DNA from: Squalus acanthias
Taxonomy: Eukaryota
Reading direction: 5' to 3'
Assembly: GCA_030390025.1 (NCBI GenBank)
Contig: CM059432.1
Coordinates: 36,334,001-36,398,000, forward strand
Length of the DNA stretch: 64,000 nt
Shown here: positions 1 to 64,000 of the stretch, piece after piece
How positions within the stretch are numbered: the stretch's first letter is position 1
Layout: each line of letters begins with the position of its first letter
Translations under genes and position numbers: made by a program
The notes under the pieces: model-generated
What the model was told of the DNA's origin: nothing
Database searches by the model: none
Seen by the model: the letters and a program-made list of their open reading frames with translations, nothing else

Positions 1-1205
1 CCCTGGACAGTGGGAAGAGGGGAGGTATAAGGGCATGTGTTGCATCTCCTGCGCTTGCACGGGAAGGTGCCGGGCGAAGGGGAAGGGGTGCTGGGGGGTG
101 GTAGAGGAGTGGACTAGGGTGTCGCGGAGGGAGCGGTCCCTGCGGAATGCTGAAAGGGGAGGTGAGGGGAAGATGCGTTTGGTGGTGGGATCACGCTGGA
201 GGTGGCGGAGGATGATCCGTTGAATGTGGAGGCTGGTGGGGTGAAAGGTGAGGACAAGGGGAACTCTATCGTGGTTCCGGGAGGGAGGGCAGAAGTGCGG
301 GAGATAGAACGGACACGGTCGAGGGCCGTGTCGACCACGGTAGAGGGGAATCCTCAGTTGAGGAAAAAGGAAGACATGTCGGAAGCACTGGTATGGAAGG
401 TGGCATCATCAGAGCAGATGCGGCGGAGACGGAGAAACTGGGAGAATGGAATAGAGTCCTTACAGGAGGCGGGGTGGGAGGAAGTGTAGTCCAGGTAGTT
501 GTGGGAGTCAGTAGGCTTGTAGTGACTGTTAGTCAATAACCTATCCCCAGAGATGGAGACGGAAAAGTTGAGGAAGGGAAGAGTCGGAGATGGACCATGT
601 GAAGGTGAGGGAAGGGTGGAAATTGGAAGCATAGTGAATTAAATGTTCTAGTTCAGGGCGAGAGCAGGAGATGGCACCGATACAGTCATCAATGTACCGG
701 AAAAAGAGGTGAGGGAGGGGACCCGAGTAGGACTGGAACAAAGAGTGTTCCACATATCCCACGAAAAGGCAGGCATAGCTAGGACCCATGCGGGTACCCA
801 TAGCAACACCTTTAATTTGGAGGAAATGGATGGAGTCAAAGGAGAAGTTGTTCAATGTGAGAACAAGTTCAGCCAGGCGGAGGAGGGTGGTGGTGGATGG
901 GGACTGGTTGGGCCTCTGTTCAAGGAAGAAGCGGAGCGCCCTCAGGCCATCCTGGTGGGGAATGGAGGTGTAGAGGGATTGTACGTCCATAGTGAAAAGG
1001 AGGAGGTTGGGGCCAGGAAACTGGAAACTGTTAAAATGGCGGAGGGCGTCGGAAGAGTCGCGGATGTAGGTGGGAAGAGACTGGACAAGGGGAGAAAAAA
1101 TAGAGTTGAGATAGGAAGAGATAAGTTCCGTGGGGCAAGAACAGGCTGAAACGATGGGTCTACCGGGGCAGTCCTGTTTGTGGATCTTGGGAAGGAGGTA
1201 GAAGC
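1..1205 (-). mobile_element. Penelope-like retroelement fragment (RT domain plus Cys-rich linker toward GIY-YIG), frameshifted
   Basis: ORF 541-1233(-) has Penelope RT motifs FYLLPKIHK...PGRPIVS, TMDVQSLYTSIP, GVAMGTRMGPSYA, FFRYIDD. It continues in another frame (YKPTDSHNYLDYTSSHP..KDSIPFSQFLRLRRICS). Reverse complement of 1-65 reads FPCKRRRCNTCPYTS. Runs off the left edge. Confidence 0.92.
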
Positions 1206-1370
1206 TAATTCTGTGTTTCCTGTACGAGGACACCTAAATCTCTCAACACCAATATTTAATAGTTTCTCGCCATTTAAAAATATTCTTCCTACCAAAATGA
1301 ATAACCTCACATTTCCCCACGTTATACTCCATCAGCCACCTTATTGCCCACTCACTTAACCTGTTTATAT
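1206..1370 (-). mobile_element. CR1 LINE ORF2 fragment
   Basis: Matches the WQMEYNVGKCEVIHFGRKN region seen in 41150-41330; joined directly to the Penelope piece. Confidence 0.8.
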
Positions 1371-1409: not shown

Positions 1410-2345
1410 CATATTAGTCTTCCCAAAGTGTATCACTTCACACTTCTCTGCATTGAACTCCATCTGCTATGCTTCTGCCAATTTCACAATCCTGTCTGTC
1501 ATCCTGAAGTCTACAACTTTCCTCATCACTATCTACTATGCTACCAAGTTTCGTATCATTTTTTAAAAATTCAGTCAAGGGAAGCCAACATTTATTGCCC
1601 ATCCCTAATTGCCCTCGAGAAGGTGGTGGTGAGCCGCCTTATACAACTGATTTGCTTGCTAGGCCATTTCAGAGGGCAGTTAAGAGTCAACCACATTGCT
1701 GTGGCTCTGAAGTCACATATAGGCCAGACCGTGTAAGGGCAGCAGATTTCCTTTCCTAAAGGACATTAGTGAACCAGATGAGTTTTTACGACAATCCAGT
1801 AGTTTCATGGTTGCCATTACTGATACTAGCTTTTTATTGCAGATTTATTTAATTAACTGAATTTAAATTCCCCAGCTTGTGGTGAGATTTGAACTCATAT
1901 CTCCGGATCATTAGTCCATCTGCAAACTTTATAATGATGCTTCCTACACCTGAGTCTAGGTCGTTTATAAAAATTGAAAAGAGTAACGGACCCAAAACTG
2001 ACCCTTGGGGGAACACCACTGCAAACCACCTCCCAGTCTGAAAAACATCCATCCTCCACTTTGCTTCCAGTCAGTGAGCCAATTCTGTATCCATACTGCC
2101 ACTTCCCCCTTAATTCCATTGGTTGCCATCGTCTTAACAAGCCTCCTGTGTGCCACTTTGTCTAATGCCTTCTGAAAGTCCATATATACAACATCTACTG
2201 CACTACCTTGATCAACCTCTCTGTTACCTCATCAAGGAATTCAATCAACAATCAAGACACGATTTGCCTTTAACAAATTCATGCTTGCTCTTCTTGATTA
2301 ACCTATGCCTTTCCAAATGAAATTTATTTTGTCCCGGATAATTAT
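1410..2345 (-). mobile_element. Degraded CR1 LINE RT fragment, interrupted by a SINE at ~1560-1916
   Basis: Fragments [27 protein letters not shown]. Flanks rejoin as accaagtttcgtatcat|ctgcaaactt. Confidence 0.8.
1560..1916 (-). mobile_element. Meta-domain tRNA-derived SINE (5'-truncated) with the 3' tail of the 11507-14772 LINE family
   Basis: 1650-1916 matches 14455-14722; 1575-1640 matches the LINE 3' tail (gccagcatttattgcccatccctagttgcccttgagaagg); B box GTTCAAATC on the minus strand. Confidence 0.85.
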
Positions 2346-9611: not shown

Positions 9612-9992
9612 GTGGGTACAGTAGCGTAGTGGTTATGTTACTGGACTAGTAATCCAGAGCACGCGAGTTCAAATTCAAACATTGGAAGTTTGAGAATTTG
9701 AATTCCGAAATAAAAGCTGTAACAGACCATGAAGCTGTTGGATTGTCATAAAAACCCAACTGGTTCACTAATGTCCTTTAGTGAAGGAAATCTGCCGTCC
9801 TTACCCGGTCTGGCCTATATGTGACTCCAGTCTCTCACCGTTGTTGACTTCCCTCTGAAGTGACCTAACAAGTCACTCCGTTGTATCAAACCACTACAAT
9901 GCAGCAATTCAAGAAGGCCTACCACTACATATTTAAGGGCAATAAATGCGGCATTGCCAGCAACTCCCACATCCAGAGAATGATTTTTTAAA
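9612..9992 (+). mobile_element. Meta-domain tRNA-derived SINE, near full length
   Basis: A box TAGCGTAGTGG, B box GTTCAAAT, central aaaaacccaactggttcactaatgtcctttag...gtgactccag, LINE-type tail gcaataaatgc...cccacatcc. Confidence 0.85.
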
Positions 9993-10430: not shown

Positions 10431-11506
10431 TTCCTCTTTTTCCCACCCCCTCACCTGAACGTCAATTTGGGTCAGAGATTGGAGGCTCTCTGGTGACCCT
10501 GGCGTATATCCCACAATGAGTCGCTGCCTTCAGGAGAGGTGGGGAGATTTTTTTTAAATTGGAGAAGTTCCTTGAGATTTTCCTGCTTTTAATGTGCCAG
10601 TGACAGCACATTAATGCTGCACTTTGTACCTATTCTAGTGACCAGCTGTCGAGTTTCGAGAACACTTGATAGTTTCTGTATGTGATTGGAATATTAACTG
10701 CTGGGATGACTGCTCAGACTCCATGTATCTCATTATAAATATTGGGTTCATAGACTCGAAAGAGCATTTGTGCTACCAACTTTTTTGAAATGTCCAAGGT
10801 TTTGGACATATATTTAGGTCGAAGGCTGGTCTCGAGAGGAAAACATTTGAGGAATACAACGTGTAGGTGGAGTTGCGATCTGGTAGAGAGTGACATTTTG
10901 GGCTTAATGCTCTTTTCCTTGGGAGCATTCTGCTACCATACAAGATGTGGAGCATCCTGAGTTTCAAGAGTCTTATCCAAGTACTCCTTTTTAAAAGTAG
11001 TATTATACTTGTGTTTTTAATAACACAGTAACTGCTGGTGACCTCAGGGGAGTTGACATGAAACTTTTGTGAAGGAAGCTGAATGCGCAGAGCCTGTTGA
11101 AATGATGAGATAAGTAAAGCATGGTGCGTAAAGACTGATGAAATAATTCGGCTCCCTCACACTTGGCAAATATTCTAGGTTGGGTGCCATGACACCAAAA
11201 TTACAGTGTTACTGATTTTAACGTACGGACTGTTGAGCATTATATCTCCATCACTACAGATCATCCCCTAAATAACCAGTAAAAACCATTGCCGGACTTT
11301 GGCATCGGGGAAGGGTGCACATGTTAGAGATTTTTTCAGTTGTAAAATTCCTGAAATGATCAACTAAATAGAATAATGGATCCTGGTTGGATTAGACTGG
11401 TATCATCTGCATGTGTTTTTGCTCATTTTGAAAGCTGGATAGTGTATTTTTCTACTGCCCCGAGCATAGTACAAAACTGCTTCCTAATGGCAGTTGTTAA
11501 ATGCAG

Positions 11507-14500
11507 TTTTTTTTAATATTCGTTCATGGTATGTGGGCGTCGCTGGCAAGGCCAGCATTTATTGCCCATCCCTAGTTGCCCTTGAGAAGGTGGTGGTGAC
11601 GTCTTCTTGAACCGCTGCAGTCCGTGTGGCGAAGGTACTCCCACAGTGCTGTTAGGGAGGGAGTTCCAGGATTTTGATCCAGCGACGATGAAGGAACGGC
11701 GATATACTTCCGAGTCAGGATGGGGTGTGTGACTTGGAGGGGAACTTGGAGGTGGTGGCGTTCCCATGCGCCTGCTGCCCTTGTCCTTCTAGGTGGTAGA
11801 GGAGGTGCTGCCAAAGAAGCCTTGGCGAATTGCTGCAGTGCATCTATTGAAGATGGTACACACTGCAGCCACAGTACGCCTGTGGTGGAGGGAGTGAATG
11901 TTTAAGGTGGTTGATGGGGTGCCAATCAAGCGGGCTGCTTTGTCCTGGATGGTGTCGAGCTTCTTGAGTGTTGTTGGAGCTGCACTCATCCAGGCAAGTG
12001 GAGAGTATTCCATCACACTCCTTACTTGTGCCTTGTAGATGGTGGAAAGGCTTTGGGGAGTCAGAAGGTGAGACACTTGCTGCAGAATACCTAGCCTCTG
12101 ACCTGCTCTTGTTGCCACAGTGTTTATGTGGCTGGTCCAGTTAAGTTTCTGGTAAATGGTGACCCCCCAGGATGTTGATGGTGGTGGATTCGGCGATGGT
12201 AATGCCGTTGAATGTCATGGGGCAGTGGTTGGACTCTCACTTGTTGGAGATAGTCATTGCCTGGCACTTGTGTGGTGCAATTGTTACCTGCCACTTATCA
12301 GCCCAAGCCTGCAAGTCGTCCAGGTCTTGTTGCATGTGGGCATAGACTGCTTTATTATCTGAGGAGTTGTGAATGGCGCTGAACACTGCAGTCATCAGCG
12401 AACAGTCCCATTTCTGACCTTATGTTGGAGGGAAGGTCATTGATGAAGCAGCTGAAGATGGTTGGGCCTAGGACACTGCCCTTGAGGAGCTCCTGCAGCG
12501 ATGTCCTGGGGCTGAGATGATTGACCTTCAACCACCACAGCCATCTTCCTTTGTCCTAGGTATGACTCCAGCCAGTGGAGAGTTTTCCCCTGATTCCCAT
12601 TGACTTCAATTTTACTAGGGCTCCTTGATGCCACACTCGGTCAAATGCTGCCCTGATGTCAAGGGCAGTCACTCTCACCTCACCTCTGGAATTCAGCTCC
12701 TTTGTCCATGTTTAGACCAAGGCTGAAATGAAGCCTGGAGCCGAGTGGTCCTGACTGAACCCAAACTGGGCATCAGTGAGCAGGTTATTGGTGAGAAAGT
12801 GCTGCTTGATATCACTGTCGACGACACCTTCCATCACTTTGCTGATGATTGAGAGTAGACTAATGGGGCGGTAATTGGCCGGATTGAATTTGTCCTGCTT
12901 TTTGTGGACAGGACATACCTGGGCAGTTTTCCACATTGTCTGATAGATGCCAGTGTTGTAGCTGTACTGGAATAGCTTGGCTAGAGGTGCGGCTAGTTCT
13001 GGAGCGCAAGTCTTCAGCATGACAGCCGGGATATTGTCGGGGCCCATAGCCTTTGCTGTATCCAGTGCGCTCAACCGTTTCTTGATATCACGTGGAGTGA
13101 ATGGAATTGGCTGAAGACTGGCTTGTGTGATGGTGGGGACCTCGAGAGGAGGCCGATATGGATCATCTACTCAGCACTTCTGGCTGAAGATGGTTGCAAA
13201 TGCGTCAGCCTTGTCTTTTGCACTCACGTGCTGGGCTCCGCCATCATTGAGGTTGGGGCTATTCATGGAGCCTCCTCCTCCTGTTGTTTAATGGTCCACC
13301 ACCAATCACGACTGGATGTGGCAGGAATGCAGAGCTTTGATCTGATCCGTTGATTGTGGGATTGCTTAGCCCTGTCTATAGCATGCTGCTTCCGCTTTTT
13401 AACATGCATGTAGTCCTGTGTTGCAGCTTCCCCAGGTTGGCACCTAATTTTTAGGTACGCCTGGTGCTGCTCCTGGCATGCTCTTGTACACTCCTTATTG
13501 AACCAGGGTTGGTCCCCTGGCTTGATGGTAATGGTCGAGTGAGGGATATGCTGGGCCATGAGGTTACAGATTGTGATGGAATACAATTCTGCAGCTGATG
13601 GCCCACAGCGCCTCATGGATGCCCAGTTTTGAGCTGCTGAATTTGTCCCATTTAGCACGGTGGTAGTGCCACACAACACGATGGAGGGTGTCCTCAGTGT
13701 GAAGACGGGACTTCGTCTCCACAATGACTGACTGTGCGGTGGTCACTGCTGCCAATGCATCTGCGACAGGTAGATTGGTGAGGATGCAGGTCAAATAGGT
13801 TTTCCCCCTCGTGTTGGTTCTCTCACCACCTGTGGCAGGCCCAGACTGGCAGCTATGTCCTTAAGGACTCGGCCAACTTGGTCAGTAGTGGTGCTACCGA
13901 GCCACTCCTAGTGATGGACGTTGAAGTCCCCCACCCAGAGTACATTCTGTGCCCTTGCTACTCTCAGTGCTTCTTCCAAATGGTGTTCAACATGGAGGAG
14001 TACTGATTCATCAGCTGAGGGAGGGCGGTAAGTGGTAATCAGCAGGAGGTTTCCTTGTGTGTGTTTGACCTGAAGCCATGAGACTTCATGGGGTCAATGT
14101 TGAGGACTCCCAGGGTCGCCACTCCTTCACGACTCTATACCACTGCCGCCACCCCTGGTGGGTCTGTCCTGCCGGTGGGACAGGACATACCCAGGGATGG
14201 TGATGGTGTAGTTTGGGACATTGGCTGAAAGGTATGATTCTGTGAGTATGACTATGTCAGGCTGTTGCTTGACTAGTCTGTGGGACAGCTCTCCCAATTT
14301 TGGCACAAGTCCCCAGATGTTGGTGAGGAGGACTTTGCAGGGTCGGCTGGGTGTGCCGTTGTCGTGTCTGTAGCTGGTGCCGAGGTCGATGCCGGGTGGT
14401 CTGTCCATTTTTTTTTATTCTTACTGCTTTTCGTAGCTTTTTTTTTACCACTAGTGGCTTGCTAGGCTATTTCAGAGGGCAGTTAAGTGTTGACCACATT

Positions 14501-14772
14501 GCTTTGGGTCTGGAGTCACACATAGGCCAGACCAGGTAAGGACGGCAGATTTCTTTCCCTAAAGGACATTAGTGAACCAGATGGGTTTTTATGTCAATCC
14601 GATAGTTTCATGGTCACCATTACTGATACTAGCTTTTTATTCCAGATTTATTTAATTAACTGAATTTAAATTCCCCAGCTGTCGTGGTGGGATTTGATCT
14701 CGCGTCTCCGGATCATTAGTCCAGGCCTCTGGATTACTAGTCCAGTAACATAACCACTATGCTGCCGTTCCC
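11507..14772 (-). mobile_element. Full-length single-ORF non-LTR retrotransposon (APE + RT, CR1-group) with tRNA-derived SINE head and Meta domain as its 5' UTR; ORF disrupted
   Basis: EN N-terminus (LLTNIWGL..PDIVILTESYL..RQDRPTRGGG, 14127-14408), GDFN at ~13919-13931, RT motifs (GPDNIP, NYRPISLL, QFGF, FADD ~12390), C-terminal WNSLP, poly(A) at 11507-11514. TSD ttaaatgca (11497-11505) / ttaaacgca (14773-14781). Confidence 0.9.
14690..14764 (-). promoter_or_regulatory. Type-2 RNA polymerase III internal promoter (A and B boxes) at the 5' end of the LINE
   Basis: A box CAGCATAGTGG (14754-14764) and B box GATCAAATCC (14690-14699), each one mismatch from consensus; sister SINE copies carry TAGCGTAGTGG and GTTCAAAT. 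Confidence 0.7.
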
Positions 14773-15010
14773 TTAAACGCACTGCCCAATGTGATACTGA
14801 ACTATATAGACCAGGAAGATCCGAGTTGAATCCTCATTCTCTGCTGAGCTAGCTGATCTCAACTGAGGCAGTGGTACGGGAAATGCAATTGGCATCCACT
14901 CCCCTGGGCTAGGGAAAAGAAAAACAACCAGGGTACCCCTCCTGATTGCAACCAGTAACCATACATGTATTTGGACATTGGAAGAGGTAGGATTGAGTTC
15001 TGTGACTTTT
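14773..15010 (+). mobile_element. Ancient SINE body that served as the insertion target of the 11507-14772 LINE
   Basis: Same family as 10204-10430; its head appears to continue from ~11485-11505 on the other side of the LINE. Confidence 0.6.
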
Positions 15011-22507: not shown

Positions 22508-23404
22508 GTTTTTTTTTTTAATTAATTTTTTTATTCGCTTATGGGATCTGGGCATTGCTGGCAAGGCCAGCATTTATTGCCCATCCCTAGTTGCCCTTGA
22601 GAAGATGGTGGTGAGCCACCTTCTTGAACCGCTGCAGTCCGTGTGGCGATGGTATTCCCATGGTGATGTTAGGTAGGGAGTTCCAGGATTTTGACCCAGC
22701 GACGATTAAGGATCGACGATATACTTCTAAGTCAGGATGGTGTGTGACTTGGAGGTGAACTTGGAGGTGGTGGTGTTCCCATGCACCTGCTGCCCTTGTC
22801 CTTCTAGTTGGAAGAGGTCACGGGTTTGGGAGGTGCTGCCGAAGAAGCCTTGGCGAGTTGCTGCATTACATCTTGTAGATGGTATACACTGCAGCCACGG
22901 TAAGCCGGTGGTGGAGTGTGTGAATGTTTAAGTTGGTGGATGGGGTGCCAATCAAGTGGGCTGCTTTGTCCTGGATGGTGTCGAGCTTCTTGAGTGTTGT
23001 TGGAGCTGCACTCATCCAGGCAAGTGGAGAGTATTCCATCACACTCCTTACTTGTGCCTTGTAGATGGTGGAAAGGCTTTGGGGAGTCAGGAGGTGAGAC
23101 ACTCGCTGCAGAATACCTAGCCTCTGACCTGCTCTTGTTGCCACAGTATTTATGTGGCTGGTCCAGTTAAGTTTCTGGTTAATGGTGACCCCCAGGATGT
23201 TGACAGTGGGGGATTCGGCGATGGTAATGCCATTGAATGTCAAGGGGAAGTGATTAGACTCTCGCTTGTTGGAGATAGTCATTGCCTGGCACTTCTGTGG
23301 CGTGAATGTTACCTGCCACTTTTCAGCCCAAGCCTGACCGTCGCCCAGGTCTTGTTGCATGTGGGCATGGACTGTTTCATTATCTGAGGAGTTGTGAATG
23401 GCGC
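22508..23404 (-). mobile_element. 5'-truncated copy of the 11507-14772 LINE family
   Basis: Collinear with 11507-12380; poly(A) tail at 22508-22533. Confidence 0.92.
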
Positions 23405-23967: not shown

Positions 23968-24835
23968 ACAACGCCTCAGATAATGAAGCAGTCCATGCCT
24001 GCATGCAGCAAGACCTGGACAACATTCAGGCTTGGGCTGGTAAGTGGCAAGTAACATTCGTGCCACACAAATGCCAGACAATGACCTTCTCCGACAAGAG
24101 AGAGTCTAACCACTGCCCCATGACATTCAACGGCATTACCATCGTCTAGTCCCCCACCATCAACATCCTGGGAGTCACCATTGACCAGAAACTTAACCGG
24201 ACCAGCCGCATAAATACTGTGGCTACAAGAGCGGGTCAGAGGCTAGGTATTCTGTGGCGAGTACCTCGCCTCCCTGACTCTCCAAAGCTTTTCTACCATC
24301 TACAAGGCACAAGTAAGAGTGTGATGGAATACTCTACACTTGCCTGGATGAGTGCAGCTCAAACAACTCAAGAAGTTCGACACCATCCAGGGCAAAGCAG
24401 CCTGCTTGATTGGCACCCCATCCACCACCTTAAACATTCACTCCCTCCCCCACCGGCGCATCGTGGCTACAGTGTGTACCATCTACACAATACACTGCAG
24501 CAACTCGCCAAGGCTTCTTCGACAGCATCTCTTACACCCGTGACCTCTACCACCTAGAAGGACAAGGCCAGCAGGCGCATGGGAACACCATCACCTGCAA
24601 GTTCCCCTCCAAGTCACACACTATCTTGACTTGGAAATATATTGCAGTTCCTTCATTGTCGCTGGGTCAAAATCCTGGAACTCCTCCTTAACAGCACTGT
24701 TGGGAGTACCTTCACCACTCGGACTGCAGTGGTTCAAGAAGGCGGCTCACCACCACCTTCTCTAGGGTAATTAGGGATGGGGCAGTAAGTGCTGGCCTGG
24801 CCAGCGACGCCCACATCCCATGAACGAATAAAAGA
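23968..24835 (+). mobile_element. 5'-truncated copy of the 11507-14772 LINE family
   Basis: QQDLDNIQAWA..WQVTF, ATRAGQRLGIL; tail cccacatcccatgaacgaataaaag. Confidence 0.92.
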
Positions 24836-25701: not shown

Positions 25702-26088
25702 GGTTTTTAAAATTCATTTTCAGGGTGTGGACATCGCTGGCAATGCTGGAATTTATTGCCCATTCCTACTTTCCTTGTGAAGGTGATGATGCAATTGAGT
25801 GTCTTGCTAGGCCACTTCAAAGAGCAGTTAAGAATCAACCACATTGGTGTGGGACTGGAGTCACATATAGGCCAGACAGGTAAGAAAAGCAGGCTTCCTT
25901 CCCTAAAGGAATTTAATGAACCATTTGGGTTTTTAACGACAATTCGACAGCTTCATGGTCACTTTTACTGATATCAGCTTTTTATTTCCGTATTTTTCCA
26001 AAAATTCTCAAACTGCCATGGTGGTATTTGAACTAGAGTTCTCTGAATTATTAGTCCGGGCCTCTGGATTCCTAGTCCAATAACATGC
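25702..26088 (-). mobile_element. Meta-domain SINE
   Basis: Collinear with 1560-1916 and 14455-14760. Confidence 0.8.
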
Positions 26089-27400: not shown

Positions 27401-28445
27401 TGATTGTAAAATTTTAACACTTTACAAATAAAAATCAAGCAACACAATAGGAACCAACATTAGCGATGGAGCTTTTAACCAATTTAAAAAAAAAAAAAAA
27501 AAATTGCTCTTAGGATGTAGGTGACATGGGTAAAGCCGCATTTAGTTGCCCTGAGTGGTGGTGGGCCTTCTTGAACCGCAGCAGTCCTTGAGGTGCTGGT
27601 GCTCCCACAGTGGTGTTGGGTAGGGAATTCCAGGATTCTGGCATATTGAGAATGAACAACAAAAGGGAAACCTTGTACAACAAAACCAAAAGTGTCTCAA
27701 AGTCTCCAGGCATTCTGGCACCAATATCCAAAACCCTCCCATGAGGACTTAAAACAGAAGATGTCCAATCTGTGAACTGAAAGCCACATGTGGTGTGCAA
27801 ACCTAGGGAACCCGCTCCATAAAGCCCATGCAACTGTATTCTGCTTGTATTTCTTGCTGTTTTGTCCAGTCTTGAATGCGTTGCAATTTCCTCCAGCTAA
27901 ACATTGATGAGACCAAAGCCATCGTCTTGAATTCCCGCCACAAACTCTGGCCATGGATTCCATCTCCATCACCGGCCACTATCTTGGGCTGAACCAGAAA
28001 GTTCACAACCTTGGTGCTCTATTTATCACTGAGCTGAGTTTCCGACCCCCTATCTACTCCATCACAAGAACGGTTCCAGCAGATTGGAGGGTGGCAAATG
28101 TAACCCCACTATTTAAAAAAGGAGGGAGAGAGAAAACAGGAAACTACAGACCGGTTAGCCTAACATCAGTAGTAGGGAAAATGTTAGAGTCTATTATAAA
28201 GGATGTGATAACAGAACACTTGGAAAATATCAACGAGATTAGACAAAGTCAACATGGATTTATGAAAGGGAAATCGTGTTTGACAAACCTACTGGAGTTT
28301 TTTGAGGATGTAACTGGTAGAATAGATAAGGGAGAACCAGTGGATGTGGTGTATTTGGATTTTCAGAAGGCCTTTGATAAAGTCCCACATAAGAGGTTAA
28401 TGTGCAAAATTAAAGCACATGGAATTGCGGGTAATCTACTGGCAT

Positions 28446-62285: not shown

Positions 62286-64000
62286 TTTTTTTAAAATATT
62301 CGTTCATGGGATATGGGCGTTGCTGGCAAGGCCAGCATCTATTGCCTATCCCTAGTTGCCCTTGAGAAGGTGGTGGTGAGCTGCCTTCTTGAACCGCTAC
62401 AGTCCGTGTGGCGAAGGTACTCCCACAGTGCTGTTGGGGAGGGAGTTCCAGGATTTTGACCCAGCGATGATGAAGGAACGGCGATATACTTCCAAGTCAG
62501 GATGGTGTGCGACTTGGAGGGGTACTTGGAGGTGGTGGTGTTCCCATGCGCCTGCTGCCCTTGTCCTTCTAGGTGGAAGAGTTCATGGGTTAGGGAGGTG
62601 CTGCCGAAGAAGCCTTGGCGAGTTGCTGCAGTGCATCTTGTAGATTGTACACACTGCAGCCATGGTATGCCTGTGGTGGAGGGAGTGATTTTTTTTTTAA
62701 GGTGGTGGATGGGGTGCCAATCAAGCTGGCTGCTTTGTCCTGGATGGTGTCGAGCTTCTTGTGTTGTTCGAGCTGCACTTATCCAGGCAAGTGGAGAGTA
62801 TTCCATCACACTCTTTACTTCTGCCTTGTAGATGGTGGAAAGGCTTTGGTGAGTCAGGAGGTGAGACACTCGCCACAGAATACCCAGCCTCTGACCTGCT
62901 CTTGTTGCCACAGTATTTCTGTGGCTGGTCCAGTTAAGTTTCTGGTCATTGGTGACCCCCCAGGATATTGACGGTGGGGGATTCGGTGATGGTAATGCCG
63001 TTGAATGTCATGGGGCGGTGGTTAGACGCTCGCTTGTTGGAGATAGTCATTGCCTGGCACTTGTGTGGCACGAATGTTTCCTGCCACTTATCAGCCCAAG
63101 CCTGAATGTCGTCCAGGTCTTGCTGCATGCGGGCATGGACTGCTTCATTATCTGAGGAGTTGCGAATGGAACTGAACACTGTGCAGTCATCAGCGAACAT
63201 CCCCACTTCTGATGTTATGATGGAAGGAAGGTCTTTGATGAAGCAGCTGAAGATGGTTGGGCCGAGGACACTGCCCTGAGGAACTCCTGCAGCGATGTTC
63301 TGGGGCTGTGATGATTGACCTCCAATCACCACAACCATCTTCCTTTGTGCTAGGTACGACTCCAACAAGTGGAGAGTTTTCCCCCCCGATTCCCATTGAC
63401 TTCGGTTTTACTAGTTCTCCTTGATTCCACACTCGGTCATATGCTGTCTTGATGTTGAGGGCATTCACTCTGACCTCACTTCTGGAATTCAGCTCTTTTG
63501 TCCGTGTTTGGACCAAGGCTGTAATGAGGTCTGGAGCCGAGTGGTCCTGACGGAACCCAAACTGGGCATCCGTGACCAGGTTATTGGTGAGTAAGTGCCA
63601 CTTGATGGAAGGTGTCGTCGACACCTTCCATCACTTTGCTGATGATTGAGAGTAGGCTGATGGGGTGGTAAATGGCTGGATTGGATTTGTCCTGCTTTTT
63701 GTGGACAGGACATACCTGGCCAGTTTTCCACATTGTCAGATAGATGCCAGTGTTATAACTGTACTGGAACAGCTTGGCTAGAGGCGTAGCTAGTTCTGGA
63801 GTACAAGTCTTCAGCACGACAGCCGGGATGTTGCCGGGGCCCACAGCCTTTGCTGTATCCAGTGCGCTCAGCCGTTTCTTGATATCACGTGGAGTGAATC
63901 GAATTGGCTGAAGACTAGCTTCTGTGGTGGTGGGGATCTCAGGAGAAGGCCGATATGGATCATCCACTCGGCATTTCTGGCTGAAGATGGTTGCAAATGC
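62286..64000 (-). mobile_element. Copy of the 11507-14772 LINE family (RT + 3' end), continuing beyond the window
   Basis: Collinear with 11507-13203; [19 protein letters not shown]. Confidence 0.93.

Follow-up and report, generated by a model that had tools for sequence, protein, structure and literature searches.

The stretch analysed here, a 64,000-nt window of the Squalus acanthias genome (contig CM059432.1, positions 36,334,001 to 36,398,000), carries on its minus strand a copy of a CR1-Zenon long interspersed element (LINE) that begins with a tRNA-like head and contains no run of four T (T4) on its sense strand. The copy diverges by 4.5% from the majority sequence of its family, and its parts and flanking sites are as follows.

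11507..14772, minus strand: full-length, decayed CR1-Zenon LINE copy without sense T4 (from the sequence).
14773..14781, minus strand: likely 5′ target-site duplication, TGCGTTTAA (by eye).
14676..14772, minus strand: tRNA-Thr(AGT)-like head with an apparently duplicated anticodon arm (alignment to a host tRNA-Thr(AGT) gene).
14754..14764, minus strand: A-box-like motif, majority form TAGCATAGTGG; its first T is C in the window copy.
14691..14699, minus strand: B-box-like motif, GATCAAATC in the window copy and GTTCAAATC in the majority.
14447..14675, minus strand: body of the short interspersed element (SINE) type serving as 5′ untranslated region (UTR), common to short head-plus-tail copies (1584-1918 and 25704-26086).
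11572..14336, minus strand: single APE endonuclease and reverse transcriptase (RT) coding region, broken in the window copy; 972 codons in the majority frame.
11558..11563, minus strand: AATAAA in the 3′ UTR (from the sequence).
11507..11514, minus strand: A8 tail (from the sequence).
11497..11505, minus strand: likely 3′ target-site duplication, TGCATTTAA, with one mismatch at a CpG (by eye).
11473..11476, minus strand: first T4 downstream of the element, 31 nt beyond the tail, in flanking DNA (from the sequence).

The AATAAA of this copy lies about 40 nt upstream of the poly(A) tail, the likely target-site duplication is 9 nt long as judged by eye, and the B-box-like motif reads GGGTTCGAATCCC in three other shark consensuses.

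The longest AAAA-free stretch on the plus strand of the window extends from 11477 to 14914, and the sense strand of the element (11507-14772) has no T4, 13 TTT, 17 runs of four or more A (A4+) and a T content of 20.0%. A preliminary description of this DNA had reported the absence of TTTT over 11515-14772 and the frequency of A4 runs on the same strand, and both observations hold. Three sister copies lie in the same window.

22526..23404, minus strand: sister copy, 5′-truncated, without T4 (from the sequence).
23968..24830, plus strand: sister copy, 5′-truncated, with one T4 at 24289-24292 that is not in the majority.
62287..64000, minus strand: sister copy leaving the window, with T4 at the tail junction only (from the sequence).

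Two of these had been given as T4-free over 22535-23404 and 62300-64000. No T4 was found over 22526-23404 or over 62297-64000, one being present at the tail junction just below 62297, and the continuation of the latter copy past the window (2111 nt) is also free of T4. The one exception named at the time, at 24289-24292 (GCTTTTC), is indeed GCCTTTC in the family majority, and the CR1 pieces of the window are, as had been noted, rich in sense T4, with 2-11 each, including a T6 near 28298. For the single full-length copy, mononucleotide shuffles predict 4.2 T4 (probability of none 0.012), and Markov nulls that keep its TT deficit give P = 0.10 (first-order) and P = 0.22 (second-order). The copy also has two weak terminators of the TVTTT form (TATTT and TCTTT), both missing from the majority. 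The absence of T4 in the single copy is therefore suggestive at most, and significance comes from the family.

A query with the head found 8786 candidate places in the genome, 40 of which were scored. The 39 other scored loci were retrieved; 33 of them hold over 1.5 kb of element, and these together with the window copy gave an aligned set of 34 copies from which the majority was taken. This majority is 3311 nt long and has one open frame of 972 codons encoding the APE endonuclease and the RT, with no ORF1 beside this single frame; PF03372, PF14529 and PF00078 of Pfam match a sister copy (L152). Copies differ from the majority by 3-6%. The 39 retrieved loci contain 22 T4 in 95.6 kb at scattered positions, and a larger de-duplicated set has 40 T4 in 244 kb with tails excluded, so that T4 density in family copies is 0.16-0.23 per kb; 7 of 15 near-full-length copies have no T4 at all. 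Since the T4 that do occur are scattered and private, the pattern is that of T4-free source elements whose copies gained T4 after insertion. Shared variants outside CpG sites comprise 54 synonymous and 39 non-synonymous changes, compared with 1201 and 3166 among rare variants (P 1e-9), and this synonymous excess shows that the source elements kept their protein under purifying selection. At the 3′ end, 77 of 104 tails have the form T(n) plus a run of A4 or longer, and the remaining 27 are mostly A-rich. All 30 bins of the element are covered by assembled contigs from four other runs, which are coded as four organisms and are presumed to be RNA. At one locus (L151) an element fragment adjoins a long tandem repeat, giving a spurious 874-codon open frame. 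Element pieces of 76-90% identity are also fused into three public shark gene models (P0001, P0008 and P0011), and these fusions are probably annotation artefacts or exonisation.

The shortest terminators of RNA polymerase III (Pol III) are described as T4 and TVTTT (Vassetzky et al. 2021, PMC8466645). The sense strand of the majority has neither, compared with 7.0 expected, while its antisense strand has 23 such signals. Under base shuffles of the whole majority, 3.9 T4 are expected and none is found (P 0.016), and runs of three or more T (T3+) number 7 instead of 20.1, a value that 0 of 3000 shuffles reached. When the protein and its own codon counts are held fixed, the open reading frame (ORF) still has 5 T3+ runs compared with 11.2 expected (P = 0.005) and no T4 or TVTTT compared with 3.4 (P = 0.011); the comparison with codon-preserving shuffles that the preliminary description had put forward thus comes out on the side of depletion for these two classes, and not for T4 counted separately, as set out below. 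A4, C4 and G4 runs of the ORF show no depletion under the codon-preserving null, and the majority contains 18 A4+ runs. The observed/expected ratio for TTT is 0.25, and the probability of T falls with run length, from P(T) = 0.19 to P(T|T) = 0.134 and P(T|TT) = 0.068, compared with P(T|TT) of 0.22-0.33 in control families. Phenylalanine is encoded by 15 TTC and 3 TTT codons, with a T-ending codon directly before it in 0 of 18 cases. It makes up 1.9% of the family protein, and in aligned parts it averages 4.2% in 120 homologous proteins and 2.5% in the family.

The controls from the same genome were two CR1 families and one L2 family, with 25 loci each. Their copies have 4.06, 5.49 and 3.65 T4 per kb, respectively, their TTT observed/expected ratios are 1.31, 1.72 and 0.71, and none of the three shows T-run depletion under codon shuffling. 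Related LINEs were taken as the best 80 of at least 545 stretches, all on eukaryote-like contigs inside prokaryotic bins; 79 of these had a usable frame, and the frames are partly non-independent, many coming from few hosts. They contain 1263 T4 in 202 kb, with a median TTT observed/expected ratio of 1.09 (range 0.72-1.87), and only 1 of 79 is without T4. The six relatives with DNA that fall inside the element's own RT clade have 4.0-9.5 T4 per kb. Neither the three families of the same genome nor the 79 related frames thus show a depletion comparable to that of the element, in agreement with the earlier expectation. By eye, the first 400 nt of seven elasmobranch Zenon consensuses contain no T4, and those of two hagfish and one coelacanth Zenon contain 7, 1 and 5. 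Older copies of 65-78% identity formed no clean sister family and, with 13 T4 in 11.0 kb, were excluded as a control. Taken together, T-run depletion is a real feature at the level of the family and, among the LINEs tested, is specific to it. As to the source of the related frames, many GTDB bins labelled bacteria or archaea hold contigs with intact LINE frames (L241-L320), DNA that probably comes from hosts or from eukaryotes sampled along with them.

The alignment of the majority head to a host tRNA-Thr(AGT) gene (L351) begins at base 2 of the head and base 1 of the gene, with an insertion of about 20 nt relative to tRNA-Thr that looks like a duplicated anticodon arm. No shuffle of 1000 scored as high as the majority head against L351 or L353, and 2 of 1000 did so against L360; for the head of the window copy against tRNA-Thr(AGT) the count was 5 of 1000. 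ARAGORN called no tRNA in the window element or in the family, Rfam gave no tRNA match in the head of the window copy, and the head folds no more stably than shuffled sequence (z -0.78). To avoid selecting for the head, 5′ ends were taken from 30 loci, including the query's own, found by a search with the endonuclease region. Fifteen start at position 20 or lower (11 exactly at position 1), the other 15 are truncated inside the same head or UTR, and no alternative 5′ end occurs among the 30. The majority accordingly has two features of a type 2 Pol III unit, an interior without sense T4 or TVTTT and a 5′ end fixed at the tRNA-like start. Among relatives, ARAGORN found a tRNA in 0 of 24, a result uninformative on heads since it found none in the family itself; Rfam gave no tRNA hit for any of the six relatives from the clade, not all of which retain their 5′ ends; and a simple A-plus-B-box motif matched 0 of 34, a weak test in that only 7 of 30 family loci match it.

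T-runs directly before the A tail were considered as terminator remnants and rejected. They looked enriched relative to short internal T-A motifs, and when genomic A6-12 runs were used as background, T3+ preceded 25 of 78 tails and 115 of 323 background A-runs (P 0.6). Genome-wide (L001-L350), T3+ directly precedes about a third of T-preceded A6-12 runs, a general pattern of T/A junctions.

Short relatives of the element share its head. One of them in the window has head and body fused directly to the LINE 3′ tail.

1584..1918, minus strand: SINE-form relative in which the LINE 3′ tail directly follows head and body (from the sequence).

Those at 25704-26086 (minus strand) and 9614-9830 (plus strand) are older forms with a diverged head, the one at 9614 being without the duplicated anticodon arm. 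Head-to-tail joints of short SINE forms were found in contigs of 4 of 4 other runs. On the question of a Deu-, Meta- or V-SINE superfamily for the body, five short body motifs had no match in the MetaSINE supplement files searched. Elsewhere in the window, positions 1-1233 (minus strand) hold an RT frame, which from its motifs we take to be that of a Penelope-like element, with 6 T4 in 693 nt.

The start of translation is less easily accounted for. The majority frame has no in-frame AUG before the endonuclease, its first in-frame Met being codon 286, after that domain. At majority position 355, 25 of 46 copies have an ATG, which the consensuses of all five published species share; it is in frame with the endonuclease in 0 of 25, standing in the -1 relation in 24. 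In this region (window 14336-14420, minus strand; majority 330-500) an ATG, which is ATA in about half of the copies, lies 85 nt upstream of the endonuclease frame and begins a frame of 48 codons whose overlap with the endonuclease frame is in the -1 relation. The interval from this upstream ATG to the start of the endonuclease contains no canonical slippery heptamer. In L241, a relative from the same clade, an in-frame Met stands close to where the endonuclease begins.

Read-through by Pol III is probably the best explanation for the absence of T-runs from Zenon source elements, likely because an internal T-run would cut a Pol III RNA short. According to this model, in some ancestor of sharks and rays a Zenon LINE would have gained the head of a tRNA-Thr SINE and come to depend on its internal promoter. 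Pol III would initiate at the head, transcribe the whole 3.3-kb element and stop at the first T-run of the flanking DNA, here 31 nt beyond the tail, and the encoded RT and endonuclease would then prime on the A tail. A source element with an internal T-run would give transcripts lacking the 3′ tail and produce no copies, so that selection on source elements would act through synonymous codons and probably also through low use of phenylalanine. The same uncapped RNA would have to be translated through some non-standard start. Low-efficiency translation of Pol III transcripts is possible, and this step is the least certain, since the frame has no AUG before the endonuclease. The preliminary description had proposed that the coding sequence was selected for Pol III read-through; the depletion of T-runs supports this in part, and neither of the two outcomes that it had named as refuting came about, the cause being read from the pattern. 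The fuller proposal, in which the elasmobranch Zenon would be an autonomous LINE dependent on Pol III throughout its life cycle, with a 3.3-kb uncapped RNA from a captured tRNA-Thr SINE promoter as both template and mRNA, T-runs removed from the coding sequence, and a 930-residue endonuclease-RT made without an in-frame AUG through a frameshift out of an upstream frame or a cap-independent non-AUG start, is tentative, and we would put it somewhat short of even chances. In the standard division of labour LINEs use RNA polymerase II (Pol II) and SINEs use Pol III (according to the part of PMC10886601 that treats this). If the proposal is true, a natural transcript of Pol III would be both several kilobases long and protein-coding; retained in sharks as well as rays and present in thousands of copies, it would break this rule. 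A LINE could then capture a SINE promoter, and the element would offer a direct test of the translation of uncapped RNA. The T-run signal itself would record, in the sequence, the polymerase from which the RNA came.

Several results weigh against read-through by Pol III. Under the strictest null, the ORF has no T4 where only 1.8 are expected, which is not significant (P 0.11). At 19.0% T the family lies below the 22-36% of the 79 relatives, none of which is thus a composition-matched control, and a phenylalanine content as low as the family's is found in 8 of 120 homologous proteins (aligned part). Variants shared between copies create a T3 or longer at 0 of 234 sites compared with 31 of 2189, with P only 0.07. 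The Rfam tRNA match in a sister copy (L329) reaches only 20.6 bits, below the 29-bit cut-off, and the A box differs among copies at 8.3% of non-CpG positions compared with 3.1% for the body, which is partly a subfamily difference. SINEs are given a length of 100-700 bp, a limit put down to the weak processivity of Pol III (PMC10886601, same part), and 3.3 kb is far longer. Finally, the AATAAA and the poly(A) tail also fit Pol II.

This last point leads to the alternative that the transcript is made by Pol II, from a SINE-derived 5′ promoter or by read-through from the host, with the head as an inherited 5′ UTR and U-runs avoided for some other reason at the level of RNA, such as cryptic splicing, premature 3′ processing, decay or slippage of the RT. 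It would account for the AATAAA some 40 nt before the tail and agrees with a report of poly(A) tails on every Zenon, whether or not it has the head (PMC13343379, the portion on these elements), and a capped RNA would ease translation, an ATG at 355 being present in the 25 of 46 copies mentioned. That ATG is nevertheless never in frame with the endonuclease, the same pressures would be expected on other LINEs, although neither the CR1 and L2 families nor the 79 relatives are depleted, and A-runs, which are equally slippery, are tolerated (18 A4+). We consider this alternative unlikely. In a second alternative, T-runs are not selected against; a mutational bias of the RT (sense T to C, stronger beside T) together with a phenylalanine-poor protein would have made a T-poor sequence in which zero T4 is unremarkable. 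The family's 19% T is the lowest of all frames examined, C is preferred over T at two-fold pyrimidine sites throughout (111:55), just 1.8 T4 are expected with the element's own codons kept, the first-order Markov null for the single copy gives 0.10, and the test on shared variants is not significant. Yet the depletion grows with run length (0.19, 0.134, 0.068) and persists at fixed codon counts (P 0.005-0.011). The L2 control is C-biased too, yet has a TTT observed/expected ratio of 0.71 and 5 T4, the three relatives below 23% T have ratios of 1.35, 0.72 and 1.0, and the 5′ UTR of the element, at 26% T, is likewise without T4. An element-specific mutational bias is distinctly unlikely, though no relative is as T-poor as the element. 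Very unlikely is a division of labour in which Pol III makes the RNA that is reverse-transcribed and the protein comes from separate Pol II transcripts of some copies and acts in trans, the element being a giant SINE that carries its partner's gene: this would account equally well for the T-runs and the fixed tRNA 5′ end without translation of uncapped RNA, and trans action of the machinery is shown by the head-plus-tail SINE forms, but purifying selection on the frame most simply means action in cis and a Pol II transcript would also be without an in-frame AUG before the endonuclease.

By its sequence the element is the published elasmobranch CR1-Zenon family. Zenon LINEs of five shark and ray species have been described by Stuart et al. 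2026 (PMC13343379, in the sections on these elements), and the first 400 nt of SquAca_Zenon-1 from that source agree closely with the element by eye, the lengths being 3314 and 3311 nt; the match to published Zenons rests on these first 400 nt and the total length. As described in the same sections, the elasmobranch Zenon-1 elements (SquAca, CarCar, RhiTyp, ScyCan and HypSab) are like the element in that they end in a poly(A) tail and have just one frame, APE-RT, without an ORF1, and by eye the same head starts all seven elasmobranch consensuses, from five shark and ray species. The main text of that paper has no match for 'tRNA' or 'polymerase III', and neither the head nor the depletion of T-runs is described there. 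A whale shark preprint (10.1101/443036) names a 'CR1-Zenon like LINE', and its accessible text likewise has no match for tRNA or polymerase III. The family is thus known, and the tRNA head, the avoidance of T-runs and the missing AUG were not found described in the literature searched; a Pol III-transcribed coding LINE was not found in titles and abstract openings, a search that left Repbase/Dfam notes and subscription journals outside. Among the closest homologues that bear a name are proteins of Lepidoptera, beetles and brittle stars, with 33-41% identity, and searches of metagenome, viral and plasmid sequences gave no usable relatives. In an RT tree (FastTree) the element groups with five lepidopteran proteins in a 25-member clade (support 0.975) that is separate from canonical CR1 and L2. 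We infer that these lepidopteran records are of Zenon type, a label that the records themselves do not bear. Several lepidopteran Zenon 5′ ends (in the part of PMC6740152 Dataset S1 that covers them) show AGTGGTAGAGC followed by a GGCTCGACC-like motif by eye, and these motifs bear a faint likeness to a tRNA D-loop and B box; for Persaeus, a Zenon-derived element, the authors report no tRNA homology (PMC6740152, main account of the element).

Several known retroposons resemble the element in part. RTE-1_DAn and the elements related to it (Kojima 2018, PMC5786205, as far as its account of them goes) are also LINEs with tRNA-like sequence, differing in that they belong to the RTE clade. Bov-tA and SINE2-1_ACar (Kojima 2015, PMC4494074, in the passages on these families) have a tRNA head fused to LINE-derived 5′ and 3′ parts and are non-coding and non-autonomous. 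In the same paper, in its passage on SINEU, internal oligo-T is taken to rule out Pol III, the converse of the T-run test used here. The T+ SINEs B2, Dip and Ves, as described in part of PMC8466645, are Pol III retroposons that, like the element, have AATAAA and an A tail; unlike them, the element majority has no built-in terminator, a single T preceding the tail and none of the T+ type standing between AATAAA and the A tail. The tRNA-derived SINEs (SINE2; SacSINE1 of the Deu type, the V-SINE HE1 and MetaSINEs with tRNA-Thr heads) share with the element a tRNA-like head that holds A and B boxes, followed by a body and by a tail of LINE type, which for SacSINE1 is of the L2 type (PMC5499810, its description of the tail), unlike that of the element. 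The element thus has the tRNA-derived head with A and B boxes of a SINE2 and is neither short nor non-coding (3311 nt, 972-codon frame): unlike in SINE2, its head and tail enclose a complete 2.9-kb coding frame.

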